From a virus: 64,000 bases of DNA. The stretch lies in the IMG/VR virus record IMGVR_UViG_3300020470_003428, positions 16,540 through 80,539 of that record, one strand, 5' to 3'. Position numbers and translations under genes: made by a program. The notes under the pieces are model-generated. The model made no database searches. It was not told the origin of the DNA and saw nothing but the letters and a program-made list of their open reading frames with translations. This document shows positions 5,569 to 49,744 of the stretch, in pieces (positions within the stretch are counted from its first letter, which is position 1; the number at the start of each line of letters is the position of its first letter).

Positions 5569-5573
5569 TGATC

Positions 5574-6646: not shown

Positions 6647-6680
6647 CTCGTTACACTAATATTCAGATACGTATTTTTTA

Positions 6681-24767: not shown

Positions 24768-25406
24768 TTATACCATCTGTGGTGTTGCACCTTCGTGAGC
24801 ATAATTCCTTAGCCATTGAGGAATAGGTGGAATCGGCTCTGCTGTCTGAGGCATAACAAGTACGACTATTTCTCCAGAGCTTTCTTCTATTCTCATTGGA
24901 CCACCATTAAACGAACTAAGGATTACAGAAGCATTGAGTGTACTCAATCCTTTAATTGCTCGTTGAATGTAAGAGATGTTGTATCGACCAGCTGTTGCAG
25001 ATACGGACTGTGCATCTAATCGATCCCAATGATCTAAACAATCTTTCAAAGCTTTGGCTAAGTTCGGAGAATTGACTGAACTGCGATTGATTGGAATTTC
25101 TTTTGTTTCTGAAGTGGTCTTCCTATATGTCGTGACCTTTGCAATATCGTTTTCAATTACCAAAGTTCTAGTAGCTGTTTTAACTCCACGAGAGGCTTTT
25201 ATCAGTTCTGAATTTGGTAGTAGATTAATTGTTTCATCGCCTTCTCCTGCTGGATCAAAGGCTAAGCAGGCTACGTTTCCTTTATCTGTAGAAGCTAGGA
25301 AGACTCCTCCTCTCTCATGAGGTGTTAATTCAACGGCTTGGTAGGGAGCATAAGTGCCTGTAAATTCAGACGCTATGGCAAGCAGTGCCGAATTGCAACT
25401 GAGCAT
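24768..25406 (-). CDS. DNA polymerase III beta clamp-like protein (short)
   Basis: ASTD.G motif and C-terminal VLVMP; replication context. Confidence 0.5.
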   Translation of the reverse strand: MLSCNSALLAIASEFTGTYAPYQAVELTPHERGGVFLASTDKGNVACLAFDPAGEGDETINLLPNSELIKASRGVKTATRTLVIENDIAKVTTYRKTTSETKEIPINRSSVNSPNLAKALKDCLDHWDRLDAQSVSATAGRYNISYIQRAIKGLSTLNASVILSSFNGGPMRIEESSGEIVVLVMPQTAEPIPPIPQWLRNYAHEGATPQMV

Positions 25407-30551: not shown

Positions 30552-31193
30552 TTAGTGATATAGAAGAGCAAAGGGTTGGTCTATAGGACCGTAAGCAAGA
30601 TCATCTTTCTTATCAATAGGAAGATTAAGCTTGGCAGCTTCTTCCTCTGAGCGAACGACTCTTGCATTTCGTGGAAAATCAACAGGGTTGATTAAGTGAT
30701 CGAAGCGACCTCCCCAACTAGCAGAGAGTCTGTAGTTGTCAGGTCTTTTGACATCCAAGAATAAAGGTAAATTCTTGGTGTAAGAGTAATGAATCAGATG
30801 ATTAATCTCTTTAGAAGTATTAAAAATTGCATCACGGAGTTTAACCGAGTCGCAATCACCTGAAACAAACCATCTCACTTTCTCAGCTTTTTTGAAGCCT
30901 TTATGGGTAGAGATGGATATGACCATGAGGTCAGTAAGATCTGTAAGAGTTAGAGAATCTATAAGATCTTTGTTATGCCAACGAGCCTTACGGACATTGG
31001 GATAACGAGCTTCCATACGTGCTGCATAGCAGTCATATAAAAGGTTGGCAGCTTTAGTGAGCTTGCCTGTCTCTCTGTCAGAAATAACGTGACAGTGCTT
31101 AGCACCAGGACAGCAATGGCCAGCTGGTGTGCTAAAGGTGAGGATGGTGTCGGCAAGCTTGAGGTTACCTGCCCCAAGCTTTAATAGATCCAT
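30552..31193 (-). CDS. GP88-family Cys-cluster protein
   Basis: CPGAKHC...CYA...RWFVSGD...YSYTK; start reassigned to ATG 31193 next to the repeat motif. Confidence 0.7.
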   Translation of the reverse strand: MDLLKLGAGNLKLADTILTFSTPAGHCCPGAKHCHVISDRETGKLTKAANLLYDCYAARMEARYPNVRKARWHNKDLIDSLTLTDLTDLMVISISTHKGFKKAEKVRWFVSGDCDSVKLRDAIFNTSKEINHLIHYSYTKNLPLFLDVKRPDNYRLSASWGGRFDHLINPVDFPRNARVVRSEEEAAKLNLPIDKKDDLAYGPIDQPFALLYH

Positions 31194-31197
31194 AAAA

Positions 31198-31253
31198 GTA
31201 CTGATGAAAAGATCCAACAAAAAATCCCTCTGCGCCCACCAACGCAAAGGGAT
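31198..31253 (-). promoter_or_regulatory. early cassette element, copy 1 (hairpin + U-run + TTTTCATCAGTAC)
   Basis: AUCCCUUUGCG/CGCAGAGGGAU stem, U-run, motif 4 nt before ATG. Confidence 0.8.
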
Positions 31254-31356
31254 CTTAAGCCTGGGCTTACGTGAGATGATATGAATTAATGCTTCTCTAT
31301 CACTGGATTCATACCATACCCTTTCTGTCTCACGGCCAGAAAAGGTTACATGAATC

Positions 31357-31539
31357 TTAGTCCATTGAATCTAAGCTGTTATGGAATCTGATCTTCTTTG
31401 TTGGCGTATCAAATTCTGCTATAAATTCATTAATCCTTTCAATCATTGCGATTGTGGATGGAGTGGTGGGGATCTTAGATAAAACGTCATCTCGGAGAGA
31501 GACTAATTCGTTTCTAGTTACTTCAATGGAACGGTGCAT
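31357..31539 (-). CDS. hypothetical protein
   Basis: 60-aa ORF. Confidence 0.5.
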   Translation of the reverse strand: MHRSIEVTRNELVSLRDDVLSKIPTTPSTIAMIERINEFIAEFDTPTKKIRFHNSLDSMD

Positions 31540-31590
31540 TGTGCGGATGTGGGATAGATGTTGCAGATTGGTTGAACAGAAGTCACAGAC

Positions 31591-31773
31591 TTAGCTGCTT
31601 CTTCTATTAGTTTTAGGAAGTTTTGCCGATGATCGGATGTCAATTGTGTCAATGTTTCCATCAGGAAATAGGGGTTGTCCGTCTGTATTTAATTGGTATC
31701 TAAGGGAACGCTTATAGCTGCCTTCCCTTAGTCTATATTTTTGACTGTATGTTTTACGTTTATGCTTGCCCAT
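31591..31773 (-). CDS. hypothetical basic protein
   Basis: 60-aa ORF. Confidence 0.5.
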   Translation of the reverse strand: MGKHKRKTYSQKYRLREGSYKRSLRYQLNTDGQPLFPDGNIDTIDIRSSAKLPKTNRRSS

Positions 31774-32014
31774 TATCAGGTATTAGCATCGCTTGCGCTA
31801 CTGGAGTGGGTTCTGATTTACCTTCGAACATCACGTAGTACCCTGGGTGAGTACGTCCGTTAGTGTATTTCAGATCTTTTCTGCCACAGATAACACCCTT
31901 CTTGGTGCGAAGGGTTCCATTGCGGTCAGGTTTAAGCACTTTGTCTCCTAATTTGAACTTGGCTCCTTCAGTCTTATTAGACCTCTTCTTGAGCTTGTAA
32001 TTAGTGTCCGGCAT
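31760..32014 (-). CDS. SH3-like small protein
   Basis: KFKLGDKV...G.I...Y.V.F; start set at ATG 32014. Confidence 0.6.
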   Translation of the reverse strand: MPDTNYKLKKRSNKTEGAKFKLGDKVLKPDRNGTLRTKKGVICGRKDLKYTNGRTHPGYYVMFEGKSEPTPVAQAMLIPDNGQA

Positions 32015-33080
32015 AGAATTTAACTTTCGGATGGTCAAGCAAGTGGTTAGTAAAGCTAGCATTTAATCTGGCTATTGGGCCATCAAGCTGCTGAGCAAAT
32101 CTTGCTTCGTCCCCATTTTTAACGTGTTTTGTGTGACTTGTAAATTGGGTGACTGCAGAATGAACACTAAACATATTGTTTTGTCTTGTTTCCAGTTCGC
32201 TTCCTATGAGATCTCCTTTGAAGATCCTTTCTAATTGATTCAAGAACTTACTCTTGATCGGAGAGTTAGGGAACTGAAGGGCATGGCCTCTGTCTTCCTC
32301 TGGAATCATATCTTGGAAAAATTCACGCATTAACACAACACCTTCTTCTTGAGAACATGGTGTATTAATCATGCGGATTTTGTCTTTGATATATTGTTCG
32401 CCAGTGGTGATAGCAGCATCCATTGCTTGTTCTACGTCGATAATGTCACGCTTTTGCCTATGACTTACTCTTGTGTCTGACCCTTGTACTCGACGTGTCA
32501 TCCCATTGTCACAAACCAATTCATTTGCATAAACAGTTGCTCTCATGGATTGAGCCTTGAGATAGTTGATGGTGTACATCAAAAAGAAGTCGGTAGTATC
32601 ACCAACTTTTCTTAACTCAGGAGGATTAAGGTTGGTCATCTTAGAAAAGAAGTACAAGACTTTCTGTTCTGGCAACCAACCAATACCATCAAGGGTAATG
32701 TCGGGTTTGTTCTCTATGGATTTCTTGTACCAATTCAATGCGTCTACTGGATTAACAATGAATCTTTTATCTGAGAATTGACCTAACTTATCTCCAGTAT
32801 TGCTTTGATACCAATGGACTACGTTAGGATATTCTTTATCAAAATTTCTAGAGTAAAGAGTTTCAGGCTCTACCGTCCAGTTACAACCAATTGATTTCAA
32901 TTGTTCTTCTGTTGTTTGCCAATCTCTACACTCTGATTTATATCCTTGGAAGAACTTAGCGTCTTCTCGAGTTAACTTACCGGGGACAAATACAGTTGAA
33001 CCTGGGTCATCAATTTCTTTTGTACAGATACCTGCCGTTGTTTGAGAACGAGGCATAGCTTGGGTGGGAGTAATAGTCAT
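32001..33080 (-). CDS. DUF932-family protein
   Basis: LVCDNGM...H...AVTQFTSH pattern. Confidence 0.65.
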   Translation of the reverse strand: MTITPTQAMPRSQTTAGICTKEIDDPGSTVFVPGKLTREDAKFFQGYKSECRDWQTTEEQLKSIGCNWTVEPETLYSRNFDKEYPNVVHWYQSNTGDKLGQFSDKRFIVNPVDALNWYKKSIENKPDITLDGIGWLPEQKVLYFFSKMTNLNPPELRKVGDTTDFFLMYTINYLKAQSMRATVYANELVCDNGMTRRVQGSDTRVSHRQKRDIIDVEQAMDAAITTGEQYIKDKIRMINTPCSQEEGVVLMREFFQDMIPEEDRGHALQFPNSPIKSKFLNQLERIFKGDLIGSELETRQNNMFSVHSAVTQFTSHTKHVKNGDEARFAQQLDGPIARLNASFTNHLLDHPKVKFYAGH

Positions 33081-33092
33081 TGAAGGATAGGG

Positions 33093-33326
33093 TTAAGGAC
33101 TTCTGAGTGCTAGATCTGTTGCAATATCTTCAACAATGATCTCAATAGCGGTGAGATCTCTGCGAAGAGAAGGATCTAATTTGGGTTTAATCTTACGTAA
33201 CTTCCCAAGTATGAAAGTTACGTTGTCTTTTGTATTAAGAGGTGGTTGATTCTCCTGTTCTTGAACTCGCTTCAATAAGAGTTTGTTCTGCCTGAACTTC
33301 GTCAAGTCTGTTATCTTGCTCATCAT
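33093..33326 (-). CDS. hypothetical protein
   Basis: 77-aa ORF. Confidence 0.55.
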   Translation of the reverse strand: MMSKITDLTKFRQNKLLLKRVQEQENQPPLNTKDNVTFILGKLRKIKPKLDPSLRRDLTAIEIIVEDIATDLALRSP

Positions 33327-33960
33327 TTACACCTATTAATTGTGAGAAAGGAAGAGGTTGATCTAGTTTTCTACAAAGTTCGCAGACTCTATCTTCAAAC
33401 AACAGTGGATCACGAGTGAATGCAGTACCCTGCACTGGTCTGTTATCCGTGTTGAAGATATTGGCAAAGATGCCACCTTTGGATCCTCTAGATGTGTATA
33501 TCGTGCCGTAAATATCCCAGAGGTCAAGATTGTTTGTTATGTGGTAGTCGATAATCGACTCTAAGTCTCCTAACAGGGTTGCAGGTGCGCATTGTATGAG
33601 CTTTTTACCTGTATCAGGGTTAACTAGGCCTCCACATCTCATCTTGAGAATACCTGTGACAACTTCATCTGTTCGCTCAAGATCAGGAAGGATATTGAAC
33701 GTTTGAAAAATGAAGTTTAAATAAGGTGTCTTTTGCCCTTTGCTGAAGTGATGGCTGACTCTAAGGACAGGCTTGCTCCAGAAGACAAGACCTTCGTTTT
33801 TCTCTAGCGTGAACGCTGGATTGTCAGGAGTCTGACCATAACCATAGATACAGCCGGATCCATTAATACCCATGACTACAGTGTTAGTCTCGGGTTTGAA
33901 CTGTCTAGTAGTGTCAACTACAGCAGTATCAGTGGTGAGAGAACTCGTGTTAGAACTCAT
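33235..33960 (-). CDS. hypothetical protein
   Basis: Start reassigned to ATG 33960, downstream of motif copy 2. Confidence 0.7.
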   Translation of the reverse strand: MSSNTSSLTTDTAVVDTTRQFKPETNTVVMGINGSGCIYGYGQTPDNPAFTLEKNEGLVFWSKPVLRVSHHFSKGQKTPYLNFIFQTFNILPDLERTDEVVTGILKMRCGGLVNPDTGKKLIQCAPATLLGDLESIIDYHITNNLDLWDIYGTIYTSRGSKGGIFANIFNTDNRPVQGTAFTRDPLLFEDRVCELCRKLDQPLPFSQLIGVNDEQDNRLDEVQAEQTLIEASSRTGESTTS

Positions 33961-33984
33961 AAAACAAAAGCAACAACATAAAAC

Positions 33985-34002
33985 GTACTGATGAACAGCC
34001 GC
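33985..34002 (-). promoter_or_regulatory. early cassette motif, copy 2 (degenerate, no clear hairpin)
   Basis: TGTTCATCAGTAC at head of a minus-strand operon. Confidence 0.65.
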
Positions 34003-34043
34003 ACAAAAAGCTCTCCTAAGATAGGAATAATCGCATCTTTCAG

Positions 34044-34571
34044 ATGGAACTACATAACGCTCCTGTACCAGAATCTCCAGACCAACCAAAGTTGGCACTA
34101 ATGGTGCAAGGAGAATCTTACGAAGATAAAGTGGGAGCTATTGGAGAGAAGTTGGTTTTATTAGCTGCGTTTGCCAAAGAATTACAGACACAATCTCACC
34201 TTATTCATTTCAACTACGAAGGATCTAATTTCCTTGCAGTGCATCAGTTCTTAAAGGATCAGTATGAATTACATACAGAGCAATTTGATACCTTAGGCGA
34301 GTTGGTGAGGACTCTTAATTATTGGATGCCTATGTGTTCTAAAGGATTAAAAGAATCGTTAGGTCCTTGCTTCAAGCATTGCGATTGCTACGAGGGAAAT
34401 GCAATGCTGGCTACGTATTATAGAAATCTAGAATCATTCTCTAGCATGGTCAAGATGGTTGAACCAGCTGCTCAAGAAACACAGCATTACGATATTGCTA
34501 ATTATCTAGGCGAATTGATTGGTCAGATATGGAAAACTTGCTGGATGGTTAAAGCTACTCTGAAGAATTAG
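34044..34571 (+). CDS. dps: Dps/ferritin-like protein
   Basis: HFNYEGSNF.AVH.FL..QY......D.LGE..R ferroxidase pattern. Confidence 0.75.
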   Translation: MELHNAPVPESPDQPKLALMVQGESYEDKVGAIGEKLVLLAAFAKELQTQSHLIHFNYEGSNFLAVHQFLKDQYELHTEQFDTLGELVRTLNYWMPMCSKGLKESLGPCFKHCDCYEGNAMLATYYRNLESFSSMVKMVEPAAQETQHYDIANYLGELIGQIWKTCWMVKATLKN

Positions 34572-34878
34572 AGCCATCGAAATCTTCTATTGCTTGTTCA
34601 AAATCACTTGCTGTGAGTTCAGCTGGTTTATCAGATGGCAACGTATGAATCACAGGTGGTTTACTACTAGTAATATTTTCTTCTTCTTCGGTATTGCATA
34701 GCCATTTAACAATAGTGACAGGAAAGGTTAGAGACTGTTCTTCTCTACCTCTGACTTCTAGCATTATTTTGGATGTCAGCCATCCTATTAATGCTTCCTT
34801 AGTAGCGAATGTATCTAATTCTTCCGACTTAGGACCAGAAACGCCTTGTCTTACTGCGTATACTTGTTGAAGGGGCAT
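34555..34878 (-). CDS. hypothetical protein
   Basis: 107-aa ORF. Confidence 0.6.
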   Translation of the reverse strand: MPLQQVYAVRQGVSGPKSEELDTFATKEALIGWLTSKIMLEVRGREEQSLTFPVTIVKWLCNTEEEENITSSKPPVIHTLPSDKPAELTASDFEQAIEDFDGSNSSE

Positions 34879-34907
34879 AGCCTTGTTTGATCTGACAATA
34901 TATTAGT

Positions 34908-35096
34908 TCAACTGTAGTCATATGTCGGTAGAACTTGCCACACATCTGCTGAGCCTCTTTTGCAGGCTGGAATAGTTTTCAGAAATCTTTCCATGGCTGT
35001 ATGAGACGTACATCCATACGCTAAGAAATGGAAGGGAAACGACTCCCCTGGCGGTCGGTATCGAACTTGCCAGTCACCTAAGTATGTGTGTTGCAT
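34908..35096 (-). CDS. hypothetical protein
   Basis: 62-aa ORF. Confidence 0.5.
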   Translation of the reverse strand: MQHTYLGDWQVRYRPPGESFPFHFLAYGCTSHTAMERFLKTIPACKRGSADVWQVLPTYDYS

Positions 35097-35097
35097 A

Positions 35098-35253
35098 TCA
35101 GTAAGATGGAACGTCTAAAAAAGCTTCGTCTTTACAATCGCTAGAGCAGGTTTGGTCGTTGAGAGCGCATTCAGATAAGCATTCAAAGTATTGATCTATT
35201 TCATCTAGTTGAGTCGCGTCTTTAGGTAGGAGAGTGGGTGAAATGGTCTTCAT
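35098..35253 (-). CDS. small 4-Cys acidic protein (picocyanobacterial type)
   Basis: IDQYFECLSEC.LND..C...C; GGAGG RBS before ATG 35253. Confidence 0.6.
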   Translation of the reverse strand: MKTISPTLLPKDATQLDEIDQYFECLSECALNDQTCSSDCKDEAFLDVPSY

Positions 35254-35514
35254 GTTGGTGCCTCCCTGCGTGTCTGTGTTTGGCTTTTCTCTGGATACCA
35301 TAGAGAATAATAAACCAGGAAAAGAATCCTAATAAGTCTAAGAAAGTCATAAAAATAATTCCAGTAGTGAAAACAATAGTCTGCTAGTATTACCTGCCTC
35401 GGGGAATTAAAGTGATATTTTTAACTGCACTTCCTTTCGTCCACTTGATTCTCACCCTGTGAGCAGGGAACTTGTAGGATAATTTAACCCATTGGATGAA
35501 GCGTTTGAAATGTT

Positions 35515-35748
35515 TCATAAATCTATAAGTTCTTTAATGAGTAGATATTCTGTCTGGGCATTACGCCAAGGAATTAGTTTGGCATGTCCTCCTGCTCCTT
35601 TCTTGAAAGAATAAGAGAGGACTCGACTGCCTGATCTTTTCCATGCGTAACAATCCCTTTGGTCTTTAGAGCAAACAGAAATAGTTTTACCTAGTTCTAG
35701 CTCTAAGAGAACACTTTTGCGAAGATGATCATCGTTGTTCTTCTTCAT
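35515..35748 (-). CDS. hypothetical protein
   Basis: 77-aa ORF. Confidence 0.5.
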   Translation of the reverse strand: MKKNNDDHLRKSVLLELELGKTISVCSKDQRDCYAWKRSGSRVLSYSFKKGAGGHAKLIPWRNAQTEYLLIKELIDL

Positions 35749-35971
35749 TTTCTTTGCGTTCCTCCTCGAAGAAATGTTCTAAGGCAGGATCTCCTATGCA
35801 ATGTTGAATGTTATAGGAGTCCAAGGTATAAGGAGGTGGATAGTCGCTTTTGATAGGCCATTCCACCTCCGGAGAGATAGTGATCTCTTCTGGTAATGGC
35901 TCAATAGAACTGTCTGCAATCTTTCCATCCTTAATAGTGAGAATGATTTTGTAATCTTGCATCGTATTCAA
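35729..35971 (-). CDS. hypothetical acidic protein
   Basis: 80-aa ORF. Confidence 0.55.
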   Translation of the reverse strand: MNTMQDYKIILTIKDGKIADSSIEPLPEEITISPEVEWPIKSDYPPPYTLDSYNIQHCIGDPALEHFFEEERKENEEEQR

Positions 35972-35993
35972 TACCTATTGAGACATATATTAG

Positions 35994-36653
35994 TTATGTA
36001 TCAGCCTCTTGGCTAAATTGTCGTTGCCTTCTGATTTGGCCGTTAGCAATAAAGTCTTTACCACTGTTAATGGCACAGGAGACAACGGATCTTTGAATAT
36101 GGTCGACTGTGAAAGCAGGTTTGCATCCTAAGCGTTTAGCAGCATAAAGCATGCCATCGCATAGTTGCTCAATCATGTACTTAAAGTCTGGGTCCAACTG
36201 TCCAAAAGAGTCAGTGGTATTGATACCATCTGCTCCGTAGTTGTCTGGGTAACCTTCAAATCCAGCTTCTTGCCAGTCTGTTGAAATGAACGTAGAGTCG
36301 TCTTCCATTTTCGTGTTGCTTGCTTGTTGCTCGTCGCTAAAAAGGAGTACGTCGACGCCGAGGTCACGGTCGTATTGGATTCTTGTTGTGTAATGGTTTC
36401 CTTCGATTGGAGTTCCATCTGTGCTGAATGGCTCTCCTTTCTTGAATAACTCAGCGACTCTTTCTCGTGCTGATGCAGGGAACGCGACTGTTGCATGGAC
36501 AGGTGCTCCGTTCCTTCCTCTGACGAGGTAGTCGAACCTAACGAACCAATATCCTGCGTGTGCAGGTTTTGATTTGACGCAGGCTGATGGGACTCCTGTG
36601 AATTTGTGGAAGGACTTGTAAGGTGTTTTGGCTTTCGTAGGGGTGGTAACCAT
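35994..36653 (-). CDS. hypothetical protein
   Basis: 219-aa ORF. Confidence 0.7.
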   Translation of the reverse strand: MVTTPTKAKTPYKSFHKFTGVPSACVKSKPAHAGYWFVRFDYLVRGRNGAPVHATVAFPASARERVAELFKKGEPFSTDGTPIEGNHYTTRIQYDRDLGVDVLLFSDEQQASNTKMEDDSTFISTDWQEAGFEGYPDNYGADGINTTDSFGQLDPDFKYMIEQLCDGMLYAAKRLGCKPAFTVDHIQRSVVSCAINSGKDFIANGQIRRQRQFSQEADT

Positions 36654-36856
36654 TTGACTGAATAGGTGGGTGGGATGAAATGGGTAACGATAGCTTCTAT
36701 GTCTCGAAGACAGAAAACAATAGAGTCTCCTTGTCTGGAGGAGTTGCCTCCGACAAATACATCAGTCCATAGGAAAGCTAACGCTTCTTGCGTAACAGGA
36801 GTAAGGAAAACTTCACTAGCTCCTTTACGTGTTGAGACTAAGAAGTCATGTGTCAT
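36173..36856 (-). CDS. hypothetical protein with long overlapping tail
   Basis: ATGA-coupled to upstream gene; first ~68 codons unique, remainder overlaps 35994..36653. Confidence 0.45.
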   Translation of the reverse strand: MTHDFLVSTRKGASEVFLTPVTQEALAFLWTDVFVGGNSSRQGDSIVFCLRDIEAIVTHFIPPTYSVKWLPPLRKPKHLTSPSTNSQESHQPASNQNLHTQDIGSLGSTTSSEEGTEHLSMQQSRSLHQHEKESLSYSRKESHSAQMELQSKETITQQESNTTVTSASTYSFLATSNKQATRKWKTTLRSFQQTGKKLDLKVTQTTTEQMVSIPLTLLDSWTQTLST

Positions 36857-37515
36857 TCGAATCTAAAAGCTCGACGATTGTGCATCTTAACTCCTTGGAA
36901 TTGAACTCCATGTTTAAGGTGGTCTTTGATGGCTGATTTCTTAATAGAAACAGATACTTCTTTACAATCAAGAGGTATTTCTTCCCAATCGATATTGTCG
37001 TAGTCGATATCAATGACATTAGAAACCATCTTGGACTTCATCTCGAAGCTTGGAAAGCTGTATTTAGTTTCGTTCGGATGTAAGACGCTCATAACATCTA
37101 GGATCCTTTCCTCTATTTGATCAGCCTTGCGTTGAGCTTCCGAAGCTAAAGCATTTAGTCTCTTGACTTCTTGCTTACGTGCTTGCACCAAGGAGAGATA
37201 TTTCTGCCTGAGGTGAAGGATACGATCAGCTTCTTGTTCGAACTGTTCAGACTTACTTAAATACTCCTGAATGCTCTGATATAATTCATCTCTTTCTTCG
37301 TCTGTTTCTACATCTGCAAGTGAATCTATTAAGATCTCAATCGGACTTAAAGATCCTTTGCTTTGAATGTCGAGGTCGAAGGATGAAATCTGGGACTTTA
37401 GTTGGTTGGAGATCCCCTTCGCAGAGGTCACCGGAGTAGAGGGCGAGGCAGTAGTTACCTGCGTCTTCTGTTGTGTCGAAGCTTTCGACCCATTGGAGGT
37501 TGGTTTTGTGGTCAT
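36853..37515 (-). CDS. siphovirus Gp157-family protein
   Basis: Coiled coil (E.KRL.AL) and C-terminal IP.....KK.AIK..LK.G....GV. Confidence 0.7.
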   Translation of the reverse strand: MTTKPTSNGSKASTQQKTQVTTASPSTPVTSAKGISNQLKSQISSFDLDIQSKGSLSPIEILIDSLADVETDEERDELYQSIQEYLSKSEQFEQEADRILHLRQKYLSLVQARKQEVKRLNALASEAQRKADQIEERILDVMSVLHPNETKYSFPSFEMKSKMVSNVIDIDYDNIDWEEIPLDCKEVSVSIKKSAIKDHLKHGVQFQGVKMHNRRAFRFE

Positions 37516-37699
37516 GAATTTGAATCCTTTTGAAATTGTCTCGATAAGGAGTGGCTGTGTATCTATCCATGGGTTCTACCGAGTCTTGAGGTAAGTAGGC
37601 AGACCAATGAACGTACACGTCTTGCTTTGGGCTGTGGAATATCCTGAAGGGATTCATGTGAACTATCAATCGCTTCAAGAAGTTGTTGAATTCCGTCAT
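37337..37699 (-). CDS. hypothetical protein
   Basis: ORF overlapping 5' end of Gp157-like gene. Confidence 0.4.
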   Translation of the reverse strand: MTEFNNFLKRLIVHMNPFRIFHSPKQDVYVHWSAYLPQDSVEPMDRYTATPYRDNFKRIQIHDHKTNLQWVESFDTTEDAGNYCLALYSGDLCEGDLQPTKVPDFILRPRHSKQRIFKSD

Positions 37700-37866
37700 T
37701 GCGGCAATTGATCTTAGAAGCAGAACCATGTGCTAGCATTTCTAACTTGTAGGTAATTAGATGATGCCGAATAAAACAAGTTTTGGGTAGTCCTGGTCTT
37801 AAGCTTTAGCCAGAAAAGTGGAGCAGACCATCCACAAGATTGGATTGCAGCCAGGACTATCACTTG

Positions 37867-38283
37867 TTATGCAGCAGCAGTGGCTTGCTTCTTGGCAGTA
37901 TTATTCTTAGCAATGGCAGCATTGTCAGCGGCTGACTGTTGAACCATCTTTGCTATGTACTCGCCAGAGATTGTCCAGCCTTGGTAGACTCTAGTTTCGT
38001 AGGTCTGACCTGTGGTAGGACATGTGAAGTCTTCTCCTTCTACAACTGGGCATGACATCAGTTCAGCGACAGAAGTCTTTTTGATGATCTCAGCACAGTC
38101 TTCATAGGAAGTTTTGAAAACTCTAGGGATACCTTCGTACTTACCACCGAGTCGGTTAAGTTGCCATGCGTTGACAGTGGCACCACCTTCTCTGTATCGG
38201 TAATACGTAAGGAGACCACCGAAGAACTCTGCAAATGCAGGATCATCTTTGGTGTAGAAATTGGGTTTGGTTTTGGTGTTCAT
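37867..38283 (-). CDS. hypothetical early protein
   Basis: Biased codon usage; start set at ATG 38283 downstream of motif copy 3. Confidence 0.75.
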   Translation of the reverse strand: MNTKTKPNFYTKDDPAFAEFFGGLLTYYRYREGGATVNAWQLNRLGGKYEGIPRVFKTSYEDCAEIIKKTSVAELMSCPVVEGEDFTCPTTGQTYETRVYQGWTISGEYIAKMVQQSAADNAAIAKNNTAKKQATAAA

Positions 38284-38325
38284 TGTGATTGTGAACGTGA
38301 ACAACCCCCATCATCAACACAAAAA

Positions 38326-38343
38326 GTACTGATGAAAAAGGTC
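38326..38343 (-). promoter_or_regulatory. early cassette motif, copy 3 (no hairpin; operon head)
   Basis: GACCTTTTTCATCAGTAC between divergent genes. Confidence 0.75.
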
Positions 38344-38400
38344 AAATAAGAAAATGAAACAACGTTAAACTATAGAGAGAACGGTTGTTTCATTGAATCG

Positions 38401-39024
38401 ATGGCTGAACAGAGGGTAAGACGTAGAGACATAGCAATGGCTGCTCTACAGGAGAAATTAGCTGAACTACAGCAGAAGGTTGGAAATATTCCACAAGGTA
38501 TTACCGATAAAGCTCAGTCATTAGAGCAAATGGTGATAAATCAAGCATCTGATAGGGCTCGTAACGCTAGAACTCAGCAGATTAGTAATATTTCTGGGGG
38601 ATATAGGCGTCAAGCAGAGAAAGGAAATGAGCAGATATTCAAATTATTAGCAGCTGCAATATTCGAGGAGGCAAATGATGTGACTGTCGCTGCTGTTAAA
38701 CAACGCATAGGAACACACGGATTAGATTCTGTAGTTCAGGAAGCTGCAAAGAATACAGCTAGACCAAAATACAGTGTTAATACTGCATATCAATCTGTTA
38801 ACGAGGCAATTGCTAATGATCCAAATATCAGAAGAGTAGGTGGACCCGTAGCGGCAGCAGCTGGTGCAGTAGCAGGAACTGGAGCATTAATGGAATGGAA
38901 TGATCCTGACAGAGGTTTTGCAATCGTAGCTGGACCTAATGTCAATCAGGCAGCGATGCAGGATATCATAGAATTCCTAGAGAATGGTGATCCTCTAAGA
39001 AGAGAGACAGAAACAATCGCATGA
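38401..39024 (+). CDS. hypothetical Ala-rich protein (possible virion protein)
   Basis: 207-aa ORF. Confidence 0.7.
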   Translation: MAEQRVRRRDIAMAALQEKLAELQQKVGNIPQGITDKAQSLEQMVINQASDRARNARTQQISNISGGYRRQAEKGNEQIFKLLAAAIFEEANDVTVAAVKQRIGTHGLDSVVQEAAKNTARPKYSVNTAYQSVNEAIANDPNIRRVGGPVAAAAGAVAGTGALMEWNDPDRGFAIVAGPNVNQAAMQDIIEFLENGDPLRRETETIA

Positions 39025-39251
39025 GATTAGCTGGCGACCTATTTGATTTTGATCTGACCGAGGGTTTAACTGCAGGTAATATTGACAGCCTGAGGCGTGG
39101 CTTCAGGGCTGACAAGATGATACCTAGGTCTTTAACTCGTGGTTTCTATGATATTAAAGATATACAGAGGAATGAGATGGCTCCTGAGAATAGCGAGCCT
39201 GAATATACATTGACAGGTGCTTACCAGCCTGAAGTCACCTATGGGCTTTAA
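39021..39251 (+). CDS. hypothetical protein
   Basis: 76-aa ORF, ATGA-coupled. Confidence 0.6.
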   Translation: MRLAGDLFDFDLTEGLTAGNIDSLRRGFRADKMIPRSLTRGFYDIKDIQRNEMAPENSEPEYTLTGAYQPEVTYGL

Positions 39252-39853
39252 GTCTCGATCTTATCTCCGTAATAATTAACATTAATCACTGACCTATAAG
39301 GTTTATCGGTACAAGTAGCACCTCTATGTGGATATTTGTTGGAGAAGATAATAGCTCTATTAGCAACAGTATCTATCTTTTGTTCGAAGTTGTCTAAGTC
39401 TGGGTGTTGAACATTGGTCCATCCATTACATGTATTTAAATGGATGATGGCAACCATGCAATTGTCTCCGTATGCCTCAGGTGGATTTTCGTCATGGTGG
39501 TAGGGAGCAGGTATATGCTTTCCTTTTGCACAGTTAAGGTTGACCTTAATTCTGACAGGCACTCTGGATTTGAGGGCAAACAGCATAGGAATGAATCTAT
39601 TGAAATGTTGAGATATATGAAATTCTGGTGAGACAGAGTAATGGTTAGCTACGAATTGAAGATTAGCGTCAGGTGGTAAGTCTTTGAAATACTCTATATA
39701 TCGTTTCTTCTCACTATCTGGCATATTAGGGTCTCCTATACCAGAAATAGTGCTTATCTCCCAAGGTTGATAGACTTCGCACCAATGGTTAAGTTCGTCG
39801 AAGTATTTCTTATCTAGGAAGTTATCAATGATTTGGACGTCTTCTAGTGCCAT
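39248..39853 (-). CDS. 2OG-Fe(II) oxygenase
   Basis: RIKVNL...HHD...LNTCNG.T...H...TCTD...R.VIN.NY. Confidence 0.85.
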   Translation of the reverse strand: MALEDVQIIDNFLDKKYFDELNHWCEVYQPWEISTISGIGDPNMPDSEKKRYIEYFKDLPPDANLQFVANHYSVSPEFHISQHFNRFIPMLFALKSRVPVRIKVNLNCAKGKHIPAPYHHDENPPEAYGDNCMVAIIHLNTCNGWTNVQHPDLDNFEQKIDTVANRAIIFSNKYPHRGATCTDKPYRSVINVNYYGDKIET

Positions 39854-39930
39854 TAGTAATTTTGATAGACATAGTTAACAATAAGGTAAACGCTGACAAC
39901 AATAATTGCCAATAATAAGAGGTGAGTCAT
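39853..39930 (-). CDS. 25-aa membrane peptide
   Basis: Own translation MTHLLLLAIIVVSVYLIVNYVYQNY; TAATG-coupled. Confidence 0.45.
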   Translation of the reverse strand: MTHLLLLAIIVVSVYLIVNYVYQNY

Positions 39931-39949
39931 GGGTGCTGATGTAAGAGAG

Positions 39950-39982
39950 AAAAAAAGCCCTAACAGTTAGAGCTATTAGGGC
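39950..39982 (-). terminator. intrinsic terminator closing the early cassette array
   Basis: GCCCUAAUAG/CUGUUAGGGC stem plus U7. Confidence 0.8.
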
Positions 39983-39988
39983 AATATA

Positions 39989-40360
39989 TTAGTCCTTGTT
40001 TGGGTAGAAGTTGGGGTACTTCTTCTTGCTTATAACGTGATTGTTTATATTACGAGGCACACCTCGCTTATCACGGTAGACGCAAATTTCACCATCGTAA
40101 AACTCAGCTAGAAATTGAGCTAGTTCTAGTGGTACGTTCCTCATTGCAAAGAGGAGTTTAACTATAAGAGGGATAATTGGTCGAGAGGCTGCATTAATAA
40201 AACGAGCAAGAAGGTCAAGGATGTTCTTTGCCTTCCGATAGGTTTTCATTGCGAATTCGGAAAGTCTTGCCATAAGATTAACGCGGTTTGACTCATTTAG
40301 CTCTTCATAGTCAATGTCAAGGACTTCTCCAGGGACTTCGGTAGTCAGGATGGAGTTCAT
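39989..40360 (-). CDS. early hypothetical protein
   Basis: Start reassigned to ATG 40360 (4 nt after motif). Confidence 0.7.
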   Translation of the reverse strand: MNSILTTEVPGEVLDIDYEELNESNRVNLMARLSEFAMKTYRKAKNILDLLARFINAASRPIIPLIVKLLFAMRNVPLELAQFLAEFYDGEICVYRDKRGVPRNINNHVISKKKYPNFYPNKD

Positions 40361-40415
40361 AAAAGTACTGATGAAAAGGTACAAAAAAGCCCCACCTCAA
40401 GGGCAGGGCTGGGGT

Positions 40416-40598
40416 TTAAATGTGAGATTCATCAAGAGTGTCGTCAAAGAGCAGTTGGTCGGCTGCATAGCCTTCAACATCCGGAATCTCGTCAGGTTCA
40501 TAAATGTTCTCTCCGACAGGGATGCCATCGGAGTTCTTTATGATCTTGTGAGGGTTGGCCTTCATAGGAAAGCCTTCGAAGCCACGTCGGTCACTCAT
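40416..40598 (-). CDS. early acidic small protein
   Basis: 60-aa ORF, TAATG-coupled. Confidence 0.6.
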   Translation of the reverse strand: MSDRRGFEGFPMKANPHKIIKNSDGIPVGENIYEPDEIPDVEGYAADQLLFDDTLDESHI

Positions 40599-40897
40599 TA
40601 GTTATCCTCGTTGAGGTCTGAGTATTCTGACATAGCCTTCTCTTGTTTGGACTCGAGTTCAGCCTGACGCTTGGCATAATCAACAAGTTGCATCTTGCTT
40701 TGATCGTGAGACCATTTCAAGATGTCATATCTATGGTTGATCTTTTCAAGTAGAGTCTTGTGAATTCTCTCTAGGCCGGGCTTATTGAAGAGGTGCATAG
40801 CATCAAGAAGAGCTAGTGCCTCCTTAACAGTGATCCATCCTAGATCGATATCAAGATCTTCTACTTTGGGTTCAGGTTGATCGTACTTAGATAGCAT
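40598..40897 (-). CDS. early hypothetical protein
   Basis: 99-aa ORF, ATG 3 nt after motif. Confidence 0.7.
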   Translation of the reverse strand: MLSKYDQPEPKVEDLDIDLGWITVKEALALLDAMHLFNKPGLERIHKTLLEKINHRYDILKWSHDQSKMQLVDYAKRQAELESKQEKAMSEYSDLNEDN

Positions 40898-40963
40898 GTC
40901 GTACTGATGAAAAGGTACAAAAAAGCCCCATCCAGCATGTGAAAGCTAGACAGGGCTGTTGGG

Positions 40964-41548
40964 TTAGAAGTCAGCGATAGCAGTATTCTCTTTAGGAGCG
41001 CTAGTCAAGACATCGAAGGCAAAAACCTTCTTGCTTGGGTTGTAGCGCAGAGTCTTCTCTTTCTGACCAGTAGGTTGACCATTGTCATCCAAGATGTCTC
41101 TTAGTTCAATGTCTTCCTTCTTTGAGTACCATTCCCAGTAGAGTCTTACAACTGCATATTCAGTCGTGTCAACCAATTCCATGATTTGGTCTCCTACTGG
41201 GTTTGGCTCTGCCTCTGTGCCATTGTTCCAGAAGTCAAACCAGGTTTCCCTGACTTTAACTTTCTGGTACTTGCCGTCACCCATGAAGATGTCGACTGAC
41301 TCTCTTACAGGAGCAACAAAGAGGTTAGGAGAGATAACTGTGCCATCTTTCCTAGTACCAGGTTTTGCATAATTGATCAGACCAACCGTAGTAAAGTCTG
41401 CCCTCTGCTTACGGATCTCTAGCTTAGAAAGGGTTGGAGACTGAGCAGCTAATAGCTCCTCATATTTATCAGCAACCTCATTCTTTGTGCCAGATGCAAT
41501 CCTTTGCTTAGGAGTCATTTCTGCAAAAGTGGTAGAAGCGTTAGCCAT
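40964..41548 (-). CDS. early hypothetical protein
   Basis: Start reassigned to ATG 41548. Confidence 0.75.
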   Translation of the reverse strand: MANASTTFAEMTPKQRIASGTKNEVADKYEELLAAQSPTLSKLEIRKQRADFTTVGLINYAKPGTRKDGTVISPNLFVAPVRESVDIFMGDGKYQKVKVRETWFDFWNNGTEAEPNPVGDQIMELVDTTEYAVVRLYWEWYSKKEDIELRDILDDNGQPTGQKEKTLRYNPSKKVFAFDVLTSAPKENTAIADF

Positions 41549-41624
41549 AGTACGCAGCACTAAAAGTACTGATGAAAAGGTACAAAAAAGCCCCCACTCA
41601 GAGAAGTTGAGCAGGGGCGTTGGG

Positions 41625-41801
41625 TTAGTCAGTCCAAAAATCGAAGCTACTATCCCAGCCTTCAGCTGAAATATGTCTATAGGCATCGATACGAGCGTGG
41701 GCTCTTTGGGCTGACCCGTCTTCTAAGAATGAAAGCAACGCTGCACGTATAGAATCTTGTGCGGTGGCAGGCCGACCTTCATATAAAAAACTAGAAGCCA
41801 T
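41625..41801 (-). CDS. early small protein (58 aa)
   Basis: Own translation MASSFLYEGRPATAQDSIRAALLSFLEDG...DFWTD; fills the space between two elements exactly. Confidence 0.65.
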   Translation of the reverse strand: MASSFLYEGRPATAQDSIRAALLSFLEDGSAQRAHARIDAYRHISAEGWDSSFDFWTD

Positions 41802-41883
41802 GGTGGTGAGCAGTACCTAAAACGTACTGATGAAAATGGACAAAAAACCCCCACTCATACAAAAAATGAGCAGGGGTGTGGGG

Positions 41884-42036
41884 CTAGGCATCATATTCCT
41901 CTACGACCTTCTTGATATGTTCAAATTCTCTTTCGATGATCTCTAACTCTGCAGGAGTGAATAGAGAATGCATCTCTTCTTTGAACTGAAGGTTGGACTT
42001 AGCAATTTCCAAGGAATTAGGCTGACCGTTAAACAT
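41884..42036 (-). CDS. early small acidic protein (50 aa)
   Basis: Own translation MFNGQPNSLEIAKSNLQFKEEMHSLF...EEYDA; fills the space between two elements exactly. Confidence 0.65.
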   Translation of the reverse strand: MFNGQPNSLEIAKSNLQFKEEMHSLFTPAELEIIEREFEHIKKVVEEYDA

Positions 42037-42099
42037 AACGTACTGATGAAAGGGAACGAAAAACCCCCACTCAGAGAGAAACTGAGCAGGGGTGTTGGG

Positions 42100-42360
42100 T
42101 TAGAAAGGGAGATCGTCGTACTGACTTGAGTCTCCTACCTTCGCAGGTAAGGACTCATTCTCGATTCTTATCAGATTGTCAATAACTGTGTCTTTGATCC
42201 TGATCAACTGTTTCTGCGTTAGAACTTGGCTGTGGCCATGCTCAAGCAAATCCATGATCGTCTCAAAGCGAGACAGGCCGACCTCAGTCCTAGAAGGAGG
42301 CTGGGGAGTGGCTTTGAAATCTGCGTAAGGAGAGGAGATTTGTGGCGCTTGTGTCGTCAT
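42100..42360 (-). CDS. early small protein ending DDLPF
   Basis: Start reassigned to ATG 42360. Confidence 0.7.
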   Translation of the reverse strand: MTTQAPQISSPYADFKATPQPPSRTEVGLSRFETIMDLLEHGHSQVLTQKQLIRIKDTVIDNLIRIENESLPAKVGDSSQYDDLPF

Positions 42361-42422
42361 CGTAAAAGTACTGATGAAAAGGGACAAAAATACCCCCACT
42401 CAAGCAGAGCAGGGGCAAAACT

Positions 42423-42800
42423 TTAATGCCAAACTAAGCCTTCTTTACATATTTCTAGAATCTCAAGGGATCTATCATATGTCAGATCGGCGTTGGCAGA
42501 GAGGAGGAGCCTGAGACAGAGCTCGGGATCTTTGGTGGATCCGATGGACTCATCCTCAGGAATGAGACTGAGATCAAACTTACCCCATCCGTAAGACAGG
42601 AAGTCACGATATTTAGCAATAGGACCACCCTCGACAGCGACATGAAATGCTAAATCAACTTCGTCGATCTCCATTTTCTCGTAAGCGCAGTCCAAGGCAT
42701 TCATAAGGATCTGGTAGTAATCGGCAATCCCAGAACGGACGCCGGCTAACTTCTCAAGATCACTATCTGAACACTTAGCAGGATAAAGACGCGTACCCAT
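42423..42800 (-). CDS. early acidic protein
   Basis: 125-aa ORF, ATG 3 nt after motif. Confidence 0.7.
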   Translation of the reverse strand: MGTRLYPAKCSDSDLEKLAGVRSGIADYYQILMNALDCAYEKMEIDEVDLAFHVAVEGGPIAKYRDFLSYGWGKFDLSLIPEDESIGSTKDPELCLRLLLSANADLTYDRSLEILEICKEGLVWH

Positions 42801-42869
42801 AATGTACCGATGAAAAGGAACAAAAAAACCCCACCTAGCGGCGGGGTAGCGCGCAGTAGTACGGAACTA

Positions 42870-43025
42870 CTACATGAATACAGGAGCTAAAGGATTGAAG
42901 AATCTAGTGACAGACTGACCAACCCAGTACCAACGGATGACAGTGCCTAGGGCTATGCAGATGGCGAGATACCAGCCGGTATGCTCCATTGCAAAGTCAA
43001 CAACGTCATGGAATAAGCGATTCAT
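42870..43025 (-). CDS. early small membrane protein
   Basis: Start reassigned to ATG 43025; one TM helix. Confidence 0.65.
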   Translation of the reverse strand: MNRLFHDVVDFAMEHTGWYLAICIALGTVIRWYWVGQSVTRFFNPLAPVFM

Positions 43026-43090
43026 GGAATGTACTGATGAAAGGGTACAAAAAACCCCCACTTCATAGAAACGAAGCAGGGGATTTAAGG

Positions 43091-43294
43091 TTATGACCAC
43101 TGTCTAACGACTTGTGGATTACCTTGACCGAAGGCTGTCCTCCACTGCTGAAGCTGGTGGAAAGCATCCTTTGGGCCAAGATCAGGGACTAACTTGCCTA
43201 ACCGTCTGCACTTAGCACTCATGATCACACCATGCCTGGAGATGATGGCGAGCTTATTACCTTGTGCAAAATCGTAGCGAGTTTCAGTAAACAT
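43091..43294 (-). CDS. first early gene, hypothetical
   Basis: 67-aa ORF, ATG 6 nt after motif. Confidence 0.65.
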   Translation of the reverse strand: MFTETRYDFAQGNKLAIISRHGVIMSAKCRRLGKLVPDLGPKDAFHQLQQWRTAFGQGNPQVVRQWS

Positions 43295-43389
43295 GAAAAT
43301 GTACCGATGAAAAGTGACACTAACATCGGATTAACATAGTTTTGACATACGTCTACGCTTGGTAGCCATCAAAGGAACAATAGCTACAA

Positions 43390-43767
43390 GCGAATGTTAT
43401 GTGAGAAGAATTGCGTAGCAATTCGAACACAAACATGAGCGACAATAAGGATAGCGAATAGCGAATATTACTGTGATGAATCACGAAGTGATTTACACAT
43501 AATATGAGCGTAATGAGCGTTCAAAGGTTCCCCAGTGATGCGTAAACGCAGCAGCTATGTAGGGTTGTCAAGGGATTTGGCGCACTCGCAAGCGCAAGAG
43601 GGAGGCGTGGGATAAACGCGCTATGCATGCGCATATACGCTGGATAACTGTTGCTAACGCAGAAGACAAAGGGGAACAGGTGAACGCACAAGAGTTGACA
43701 AAGGAACGCGTCCCTCAAGCGAGCGATTGATGCGCTAATTAGGAACTAATTACGCACAATTGCGAGC
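43390..43767 (+). other. structured non-coding region with three GNA-triloop/tandem-GA hairpins and a long rod
   Basis: Hairpins at 43390-43440, 43461-43509, 43719-43767; nested helices 43517-43687. Confidence 0.7.
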
Positions 43768-44086
43768 GCTAATTAACACACACTTAACAGAAACGTTGCG
43801 TCGCTTAACATCAGAGCAACATCGGTGCGCTAGAATCGCCCCTTATTTTTTTGTTTACGCGGTATCGCAACTTGCAGTGGGTGTTTGATGTATAGCGCGG
43901 AGAGCAAAAAATTAGCAATTTCTCCCGCGAGGCTATATAGGGAATAACATCGCTTCATAGTGAAAATTCGCGACGTCAAATTCTGTGAAATTTTTTGTTC
44001 CCTATTTCCCGCGAGGCGCTTACCGGCGAAACCCTAGTAATCAGAGCCGATAGACTTGTAATACGTGGAATGTGTATCTGAGTCGA

Positions 44087-48292: not shown

Positions 48293-49744
48293 ATGGCTGA
48301 TAGTTTTCCTTTAAATCCCACTTGGGAAGAGTTGGTAGACGTTTATAGACGTTCTTTCGAGGCTAATCCTAGAAATTATGCGGATTATCGTCGTAAAGCA
48401 ACGGGATATGAGAATACTCCTCTCATGGACATGGGACAAGGCTCCCAAACATGGAATTATCTAAGGCAAGCTCTGCCTGAAAACGTAGGATCCCTGCAAT
48501 GGTTCCAAGATCAAGCAAGAAATATTCAATCTGCTAATAATTCCCCTAATTGGAGGAGAAAATTAGCTACTAATGTTATGAATGCTGTTGAAAACATACC
48601 TTTAGGTGGTTACACAGCAAAAGAAAGGCAGATGTACGCAGAAGCTCGTGCAGCTGATTACAACGTTCGAACTAAAACAGTTGATTTTAACCAAGTTCTA
48701 GATCCTAGGACTATGACAAAAGCTGCTGAAGCAGCAGGTGTCATGCCTCAGTATGTGGATATCGGTAATAATGCTAGGGTCAGGGCTGCTCAAGCTGCAG
48801 GAGTTGTTTCAGCTGATATAGCTACAGATGGTGCTCGTAATATTTGGTGGTTCTTAAATGCACCTCAGGCTGTGGCATCTATGGCAGCTTTAAGTGCTTT
48901 ACATCATGCTCAATCAGGATCTGAAAAAGTCATAAGAGACAAAGGTATATCTCAGGAGAACGTTCAAGTTCCAATGATGAAAAAACGTGGATATAGACTA
49001 GCTGCAACTCTACCTTCGGTCATCGCGATGTCTGCGGCTGTAGGGAATATCGGAAGGAAGCCAGGTTACAAGCAAGTTGTCCCTAGTGCTGAAGATCCTC
49101 GTAAAACTGCTGATCCATGGCAGGAAGCATTAAGTCGGTATTTCTTAGGTAGAACAGGACGTTTACTCCCTTATAAAGAATTTTCTAGGGAAAGACCTGA
49201 TGTTTCTCCTGATGAATACAGAAGATATAAAGCATATAGTTTCGATCAAAAAACTGATTTAAATCCGTTAGATGGTGATTTTAATATTCTGGGAGCATTA
49301 AGAGGAACAACTCAGGGGATCCATGGACCAGAAGTTAATTTCATGGGTAAGAGTATTCCTATTGGAACTGGAGTCTTACCTGTGGCAGCTGGTGTTATAG
49401 GTACTCGTATGGGTGCTAAGAAGGCGATGAAGAGATTGATAGATATGAAAGCAAAAACTTCGGATTACGGTATTGACAAGTTAAATGCATACAGCACGAA
49501 ACTGAGTGAGATGGAGGATGCTCAGAGAAGAAGAATAGATCCCGAAACCGAGGCACCATTCAGGTCAGCTAAAGAAGAGAGAGATTTTGCTGCAAGAGTA
49601 GACCGCTTAAAAATGCATAAAGATGAAATTGATTCCAAGAACCAAAGAGAAGTATTAAGACAAGCTCTTTTATATGGTGGAGCAGGTGTAACAGGTACTG
49701 CTCTTGTAGGAGAAGGGGTTGAGCAAATAAGGAGGGCAGGCTAA
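48293..49744 (+). CDS. putative internal virion protein
   Basis: 483-aa Ala/Gly-rich ORF. Confidence 0.75.
   Translation: MADSFPLNPTWEELVDVYRRSFEANPRNYADYRRKATGYENTPLMDMGQGSQTWNYLRQALPENVGSLQWFQDQARNIQSANNSPNWRRKLATNVMNAVENIPLGGYTAKERQMYAEARAADYNVRTKTVDFNQVLDPRTMTKAAEAAGVMPQYVDIGNNARVRAAQAAGVVSADIATDGARNIWWFLNAPQAVASMAALSALHHAQSGSEKVIRDKGISQENVQVPMMKKRGYRLAATLPSVIAMSAAVGNIGRKPGYKQVVPSAEDPRKTADPWQEALSRYFLGRTGRLLPYKEFSRERPDVSPDEYRRYKAYSFDQKTDLNPLDGDFNILGALRGTTQGIHGPEVNFMGKSIPIGTGVLPVAAGVIGTRMGAKKAMKRLIDMKAKTSDYGIDKLNAYSTKLSEMEDAQRRRIDPETEAPFRSAKEERDFAARVDRLKMHKDEIDSKNQREVLRQALLYGGAGVTGTALVGEGVEQIRRAG

Follow-up and report, generated by a model that had tools for sequence, protein, structure and literature searches.

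The stretch of DNA analysed here (the window, 64,000 nt) comprises bases 16540-80539 of the 80,539-bp virus record IMGVR_UViG_3300020470_003428, and its subject is a short element repeated between small early genes on the minus strand. The contig terminates within psbA, for which Prochlorococcus gives the best matches (88%), and the closest cultured phage is Synechococcus phage S-EIV1 (KJ410740), with a TerL that is 52% identical. Genes run leftward from 43294, with small ORFans first and recombination, nucleotide and replication genes after them, and rightward from 44087, where the virion genes are found. No element lies beyond the 12 kb with which the leftward block begins, beside this divergence point.

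The core of the element, GTACYGATGAA on the plus strand, was found in 12 exact copies in the window (0.05 expected; no shuffle attained 12) and nowhere in the rest of the 80,539-bp genome, so that the window copies are the complete genomic set. They start at 31198, 33985, 38326, 40365, 40901, 41566, 41824, 42040, 42368, 42804, 43031 and 43301, exactly where the original prediction had placed them, and all 12 are intergenic and share one orientation with minus-strand genes after each, as it had also claimed. Read on the minus strand, the motif is TTCATCRGTAC, and each copy reads TTTTCATCRGTAC with the start codon after it. The conserved span amounts to about 27 nt (-14 to +13 around the core), TTTTTTGTnCCTTTTCATCRGTACnTT, hairpin-less copies included. 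The T at -13 and the G at -8 are invariant among the 12 copies with or without a terminator, indicating that the T-run is part of the signal. A degenerate 13th copy, CATCAGCAC (39933-39941), stands at the same spacing after the only terminator that had appeared to be motif-less (39957-39982), and is identical in five relatives. Across 77 copies from 12 related sequences the core is constant but for one free position, at which C is also possible in relatives. Several familiar identities for the motif were tried and rejected. An NtcA site (GTA-N8-TAC) disagrees with the N12 spacing found here, and a LexA box with the second half-site; a -10 box TACnTT would place the start behind the ATG, yet synonymous changes begin at that ATG; and GTAC is not depleted, contrary to restriction-site avoidance.

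The features described below lie on the minus strand unless stated otherwise. The array is opened by copy 1 (43301-43324), which has no hairpin and carries the 9-mer CATCGGTAC at 43301-43309 after AGTGTCACTTTT, 6 nt upstream of the ATG of cassette gene 0 (43091-43294, 67 aa). Copy 2 (43031-43082) is composed of a hairpin at 43055-43082 (-18.4 kcal/mol), a T-run, TTTGTACCCTTT and the 9-mer at 43031-43039, and the ATG of cassette gene 1 (42870-43025, 51 aa) follows 5 nt downstream. Hairpin and 9-mer also make up copy 3 (42804-42847; hairpin 42828-42847, -16.0 kcal/mol, and CATCGGTAC), 3 nt before the ATG of cassette gene 2 (42423-42800, 125 aa); copy 4 (42368-42417; hairpin 42391-42417, -18.9 kcal/mol), 7 nt before that of cassette gene 3 (42100-42360, 86 aa), which has divergent alleles in relatives (77-85% nucleotide identity); and copy 5 (42040-42093; hairpin 42063-42093, -20.8 kcal/mol), 3 nt before that of cassette gene 4 (41884-42036, 50 aa). 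Copy 6 (41824-41877; hairpin 41847-41877, -19.1 kcal/mol, and 9-mer) has a 22-nt leader ahead of cassette gene 5 (41625-41801, 58 aa). Copy 7 (41566-41618; hairpin 41590-41618, -20.1 kcal/mol, and 9-mer) is followed by an in-frame GTG 5 nt after GTAC and by an ATG 17 nt downstream; from ATG, cassette gene 6 (40964-41542) encodes 192 aa and is under purifying selection (differences 1/1/13 by codon position). The array continues with copy 8 (40901-40957; hairpin 40924-40957, -23.0 kcal/mol, and 9-mer), 3 nt before the ATG of the two-gene cassette 7 (40416-40897; 99 aa and 60 aa), and copy 9 (40365-40410; hairpin 40388-40410, -15.1 kcal/mol, and 9-mer), 4 nt before that of cassette gene 8 (39989-40360, 123 aa). 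The degenerate copy (39933-39982) consists of the hairpin at 39957-39982 (-15.7 kcal/mol), a T-run, CTCTCTTA and CATCAGCAC, with an ATG 2 nt downstream; behind it lies a hydrophobic open reading frame (ORF) of 25 codons (39853-39930) that overlaps the start of an endonuclease V-like gene (39248-39853). Cassette genes 0, 1, 5, 6 and 8 are of unknown function, no family match was obtained for any cassette protein, and most cassette genes are under purifying selection.

The three hairpin-less copies are the heads of units, as had been predicted: the array opener at 43301 and the copies at 38326 and 33985, both of which sit in short divergent gaps beside plus-strand genes. Copy 10 (38326-38349) has no terminator and faces a plus-strand gene starting at 38401; the first long gene behind it (37867-38283, 138 aa) has a 42-nt leader. 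Copy 11 (33985-34008) lies in a 64-nt divergent gap beside a ferritin/Dps-like gene (34044-34571, plus strand), which is real as judged by its differences from relatives (5/3/37 by codon position). The earlier claim that the copies stand just before a minus-strand ATG needs a correction at this copy: the ATG that comes 5 nt downstream begins an ORF of just 9 codons (33950-33979), which overlaps the start of the real gene behind the copy (33235-33960, 241 aa, unknown function), and that gene starts 24 nt after GTAC. Copy 12 (31198-31254) has a hairpin at about 31218-31254 (-22.9 kcal/mol) with the 9-mer, 4 nt upstream of the ATG of a 213-aa gene (30552-31193; Pfam GP88, PHROG 1392).

Nine of the exact copies come directly after GC-rich hairpins of -15 to -23 kcal/mol that are followed by 5-7 U and begin 6-10 nt past the preceding stop codon, in agreement with the original prediction. 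By sequence these hairpins have the parts of intrinsic terminators (GC-rich hairpin and U-tract, downstream of a stop codon), and they were the best hits of a terminator scan (27 sites versus 11.1 in shuffles); predicted intrinsic terminators are thus fused to nine exact copies, or ten elements with the degenerate copy. Each of the 10 predicted terminators stands less than 35 nt before the next start codon with nothing else conserved between, so that a restart of transcription would be needed there. The start codon follows the motif by 2-7 nt in 10 of the 13 copies, in line with the very short leaders claimed earlier for this phage, and no Shine-Dalgarno (SD) sequence was seen ahead of any motif-gene start codon, also as claimed.

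The element is a property of the clade. TerL has hundreds of marine relatives, from which four near-complete IMG/VR genomes (G046, G048, G049 and G050; TerL 80-86% identical, GC 41-60%) were compared. The 11-mer of the window is absent from all four; their early regions carry 11-16 element copies each, in one orientation and with a shared layout of stop codon, hairpin ending GTGGGGG, T-run, TG, 8 nt and CANCNGTRC, mostly followed by ATT. The 9-mer takes the form CAGCAGTGC in G048 and G049, CAACNGTGC in G050, CAYCAGTGC and CAACNGTGC in G046, and CATCRGTAC in the window. The 11-mer is just this phage's version of a clade-wide element of about 30 nt, T-run, TG-N8-CANCNGTRC, a family that the original prediction overlooked. 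Leaders are mostly 2-7 nt long in the window and G046 and mostly 18-23 nt in G048 and G049.

Long leaders fold with the 9-mer as the 5' arm of a hairpin, including those of three window copies. At copy 6 the leader hairpin (41811-41829, CAGUAC/GUACUG, -6.8 kcal/mol) is built from the 3' two-thirds of the 9-mer; at copy 7 it is CAGUAC/GUGCUG (41555-41571, read from sequence); and at copy 10 it is a 10-bp stem, UCAUCAGUAC/GUGUUGAUGA (38311-38335), that holds the entire motif, with -7.7 to -11.8 kcal/mol depending on the stretch folded. Among 25 distinct long leaders, 16 have at least 5 of the first 10 nt paired with a folding energy of -4.5 kcal/mol or lower, compared with 8.0 ± 2.1 when the tails are shuffled, and 11 of these 16 have a helix that begins at position 1 or 2. 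Two positions of the 9-mer that vary between lineages show compensatory pairs, G-C/U-A/A-U at position 3 and A-U/G-C at position 8. Stabilisation of mRNA by a hairpin flush with its 5' end is a classic arrangement, and in the T7 phi10 leader such a 5'-terminal hairpin is built from the conserved first bases of the promoter.

These leaders bear on the view that the motif is a translation signal or mRNA operator, serving as a substitute for the SD sequence or as a RegA-like repressor site at the start codon. The motif does occupy the SD position, since 10 of 13 copies have it 2-7 nt ahead of the start codon, and the genes lack an SD sequence, but this role is very improbable: the 9-mer of G048 and G049 is 18-40 nt away from the ATG and is locked in a hairpin, no complementarity to the 3' end of 16S rRNA was seen, with no 16S sequence aligned, and the upstream T-run and TG are conserved too.

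RNA contigs cover the window in part, and only the covered parts are informative. Three whole metatranscriptome contigs from two marine studies end inside the 9-mer, at 31198 and 41566 (its last base) and at 40370 (its fourth base). Repeat branching during assembly does not explain these ends, since the terminal 30-mers are unique and have a single successor in all relatives, and as 5'-end evidence they provide a weak hint. The 9-mer is most likely transcribed and begins each early mRNA.

The contig ends would suit a cleaved end equally. Under a processing scheme, a few host-type promoters at the unit heads would drive transcription through the hairpins, and a sequence-specific endoribonuclease, either a T4 RegB-like phage enzyme or host RNase E/J, would cut at the 9-mer to yield mRNAs of one gene each, bounded by a fixed 5' end and a 3' hairpin. 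In its favour, one contig bridges the element at 43031, -10-like hexamers occur 30-40 nt upstream of two hairpin-less copies (TGCGATTAT at 33985 and TATAGT at 38326), flush 5' hairpins would shield a processed end too, and the AC|UUU after the motif suits the cleavage preference of RNase E, RN|WUU. Against these points, hardly any transcript would read through ten strong predicted terminators in a row, RNase E does not require an invariant 9-mer with TG-N8, the conserved upstream T-run and TG would fall in the discarded fragment, and neither a nuclease family among the cassette genes nor a ribozyme was found. Processing, although the main competitor of the start-signal reading, is regarded as unlikely.

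The joints also serve as points of exchange. A blastn search of 8 kb against a phage collection returned no match and a 14-mer scan of IMG/VR gave single chance hits only; a longer degenerate pattern recovered one close relative in IMG/VR. In total, the same element was found in nine metagenome loci and two IMG/VR loci. Compared one cassette at a time, their early regions mostly share about 85-99% identity with the window (down to 77-80% in L124 and L127). Single cassettes are present, absent or replaced exactly between elements. The gene at 42423-42800 is missing in L122 and L124, with a junction within the core that carries C at the variable base, and in L126, with a junction in the T-run. 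The gene at 41884-42036 is missing in L119, L122, L125 and L126, and in L120 an unrelated gene stands in its place between the same joints; L126 also has an extra 225-nt ORF inside cassette 7, ahead of the terminator. Likewise, G048 and G049 differ by the presence or absence of two cassettes and the replacement of one, with neighbours 97-99.7% identical. The hybrid junctions are placed differently within the element, in the 5' stem arm, in the T-run or in the core, and no match to the tyrosine recombinase family PF00589 was found; varying junctions and the missing integrase together argue for homologous exchange between the repeats. The suggestion of cassette shuffling like that of T4-type phages was thus borne out by gain, loss and replacement of cassettes and by the hybrid junctions, both in L119-L126 and in G048 versus G049. 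The assembly of a relative that is 93% identical (L118 and L001, from IMG/VR sample 3300020465) breaks within the array, between the 41824 and 43301 copies, as expected of a repeat-rich and population-variable region.

Real as the exchange at the elements is, it is highly improbable that they act in recombination alone, as integron attC-like sites or as plain homology, and play no part in expression: no integrase was found, junctions at varied points suit homologous rather than site-specific exchange, and homology alone would not fix a 9-mer across lineages of 41-60% GC. A similarly slight chance is given to a role as the target of a trans-acting ribozyme. Hammerheads can cleave at the triplet GUA|C, and the ends of two RNA contigs lie immediately past it, but the candidate was rejected, as no Rfam ribozyme, no CUGANGA-stem-GAA unit with arms matching the motif and no RNA complementary to the motif elsewhere in the genome was found. 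The plus strand of the motif itself reads CUGAUGA, with no stem II or GAAA behind it, which was taken as chance.

The signal does not resemble a host promoter. A sigma-70 promoter scan found no site at any element (19 sites in total versus 30.7 in shuffles), and with every register read the earlier statement that no sigma-70 promoter fits here is upheld; there is no sigma-70 -10 box, since all lineages lack the key A at -11 and mostly have C instead. The 13-mer of the element has no hit in five picocyanobacterial genomes, its 11-mer occurs about 1.3 times per Prochlorococcus genome compared with 2.4 for the reversed control (41 genomes), and the family pattern gave eight hits in 26 genomes, the recurrent ones within coding genes. 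By these counts the signal as a class is absent from Prochlorococcus genomes and is not of host promoter type. Unaided host RNA polymerase could still be imagined to read it as an unusual promoter, with the TG as an extended -10 plus a degenerate hexamer and with the principal or an alternative sigma factor: the spacing between the TG and the 9-mer does not vary, the hexamer after the TG has T as its last base in most cases, the searches for a phage polymerase or sigma factor were negative, and by established logic the host enzyme must read the first phage genes when there is no virion polymerase. We consider this improbable, given the missing A at -11, the negative scan at the elements and the lack of use of the motif in host genomes.

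As for the reader, the original prediction had proposed a phage or virion RNA polymerase, with an altered host enzyme as the other choice, and the search for RNA polymerase and sigma genes did not bear a phage or virion polymerase out. The 974-aa protein encoded at the divergence point (44087-47011), the largest of the unknown proteins, was tried as the reader of the signal and rejected, as it is absent from relatives that keep the element, with no homologue in G046-G050.

The best reading, which we judge fairly probable, is that the element is a composite of an intrinsic terminator and a phage-specific start signal. In this model, the terminator of each joint of about 70 nt would end the transcript of the upstream gene, and the start signal, joined to the U-tract, would comprise the T-run, TG, 8 nt and the 9-mer CANCNGTRC (here CATCRGTAC). 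The next early mRNA would begin within the 9-mer or at its 5' edge and, with the start codon 2-7 nt on, would be nearly leaderless, for which no SD sequence is needed. Where leaders are longer, the 9-mer would pair downstream into a 5'-terminal hairpin in the style of the T7 phi10 leader. The signal, not being of host promoter type, would be read either by host RNA polymerase that a phage factor redirects or by a phage polymerase that has escaped recognition. Since the joints are near-identical and in the same orientation, homologous recombination between them would delete, insert or replace single genes.

The promoter function proposed originally gains some weight from the terminators less than 35 nt ahead of the genes, the contig ends in the motif and the covarying leader hairpin, short of proof, and we infer promoter activity and the start point from these. 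Several results weigh against this model. No -10 TAnnnT occurs in any register of the signal, and transcripts that begin with C would not be usual for a polymerase. In six-frame searches, the T7-type RNA polymerase family PF00940 was unmatched in G000, G046, G048, G049 and G050 (a search with no positive control) and Sigma70_r2 and Sigma70_r4 gave no match, while Pfam and PHROG scans of about 70 proteins returned no RNA polymerase or sigma family. The shuffle control for the leader hairpins is fairly high (8/25), with one in 300 shuffles reaching 16. The RNA contigs stop at two different positions of the 9-mer, one X2 contig (about 42967-43175) spans the terminator and motif at 43031, from read-through or from DNA in the library, and assembled contigs can neither prove a 5' end nor separate a primary from a processed one.

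The closest parallel is the promoter-early stem-loop (PeSL) cassettes, described in the T4-type phages RB49/phi1, PST/T4 and nt-1/KVP40, in which homologous exchange between joints has been demonstrated (PMC2839356, PMC4122927). As in PeSL systems, joints of terminator plus start signal separate small ORFans in a hyperplastic early region, and recombination between joints leads to deletion, insertion and replacement with crossover points that vary within the joint. Unlike PeSL elements, which have a consensus sigma-70 promoter (-35, -10 and AT-rich upstream sequence) and an SD sequence at the 3' end, the joints here show neither; the signal is absent from host genomes, the U-tract of the terminator belongs to the signal, and the phage is an S-EIV1-related cyanophage unrelated to the T4-type myoviruses. 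Integron attC cassettes differ in that no tyrosine recombinase match (PF00589) and no fixed crossover point were found here, the junctions falling at three places. The element resembles the T7-group promoters in its long, phage-private conserved signal (about 23 bp there, a span of about 27-30 nt here), which in T7-group promoters runs into the transcript and here would do so if the start point lies in the 9-mer; as in the T7 phi10 leader, the conserved first bases would pair downstream into a 5'-terminal stabilising hairpin. In contrast to that group, no single-subunit RNA polymerase gene was detected here (PF00940, no positive control), and no sequence likeness to the T7, T3, SP6 or Syn5 promoters is known.

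S-EIV1 (KJ410740) shares the genome plan of leftward small early genes and a rightward virion block. It lacks the element, with one chance hit only, and has other intergenic repeats. Its replication module is an entirely different one, which makes presence/absence profiling against S-EIV1 uninformative. Its own repeat, GTCCyrAGCATGACAyTAAACTGC (29121, 30466, 33554, 38756 and 42957; locus L116), stands about 35 nt before five minus-strand starts, and its early region holds further structured intergenic repeats.

Around the array, several neighbours were recorded. The 974-aa protein is 34-57% identical in L121-L126, next to early regions that are mostly 90-99% identical (L124 down to 77%); this hypervariable gene sits where the early and late units diverge, and its product may be injected or have to do with host range. 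Its AlphaFold2 model is mostly low-confidence or disordered (pLDDT 29.7), and a PDB profile search and the ESM Atlas gave no match. Upstream of the first rightward gene, TCCCGCGAGGC occurs twice at 43915-44012, once beside TATATAG, and may be the signal of the rightward (late) unit. Triloop hairpins at 43390-43767, just upstream of the first element, have stems of 6-7 bp and loops of 3 nt. Such dimensions resemble those of N4 early promoters; no N4-type polymerase is present in this phage. On the plus strand inside the early region, a 76-aa gene of no known family (39021-39251) keeps its place in four of four distant relatives (41-51% identity) and is a candidate regulator. It is one of the unknown core proteins common to G000, G046, G048, G049 and G050; the others are encoded at 11319-11963, 11966-12436, 22709-23098, 23266-24015, 24019-24708, 24768-25406 and 48293-49744 of the window and at 5353-6759 of the genome. 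The gene at 10227-10547 (minus strand) encodes the N-terminal domain of a dATP/dGTP diphosphohydrolase (PF18909, E 6e-32) and is 76-80% identical in all relatives; near it lie a dCMP deaminase gene and a weak ThyX-like gene, and no gene is recognisable as a DNA polymerase. Together these features hint at nucleotide-pool manipulation or modified DNA. Many TerL homologues of the clade (P0074, P0076, P0079 and others) are about 890 aa long and carry a LAGLIDADG domain (PF14528), indicating that TerL inteins are common in the lineage.

To our knowledge, nothing is known of gene expression in the S-EIV1 group. The clade of S-EIV1-related phages is widespread in marine and freshwater habitats, and in one survey S-EIV1-group phages accounted for about 3% of the mapped marine cyanophage signal (PMC5332604). 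It is possible, and put forward tentatively, that this clade has an unrecognised transcription device, either a phage RNA polymerase of a new type or a small phage factor by which the cyanobacterial enzyme is retargeted, with the element of about 30 bp as its promoter; as part of the same tentative proposal, such a device would yield early mRNAs without SD sequences that are nearly leaderless or capped by a 5' hairpin. The finding provides a precise, clade-wide candidate for the early start signal of the S-EIV1 group, and with it a defined 30-bp probe for the takeover of transcription. Cassette exchange at the joints makes the early region hypervariable, which also breaks metagenome assemblies, and it extends PeSL-style exchange to an unrelated phage group with a different type of signal. 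In kind, the system is PeSL-like but has a different, phage-private signal and messages that lack an SD sequence, and no transcription apparatus is known for its cyanophage lineage.

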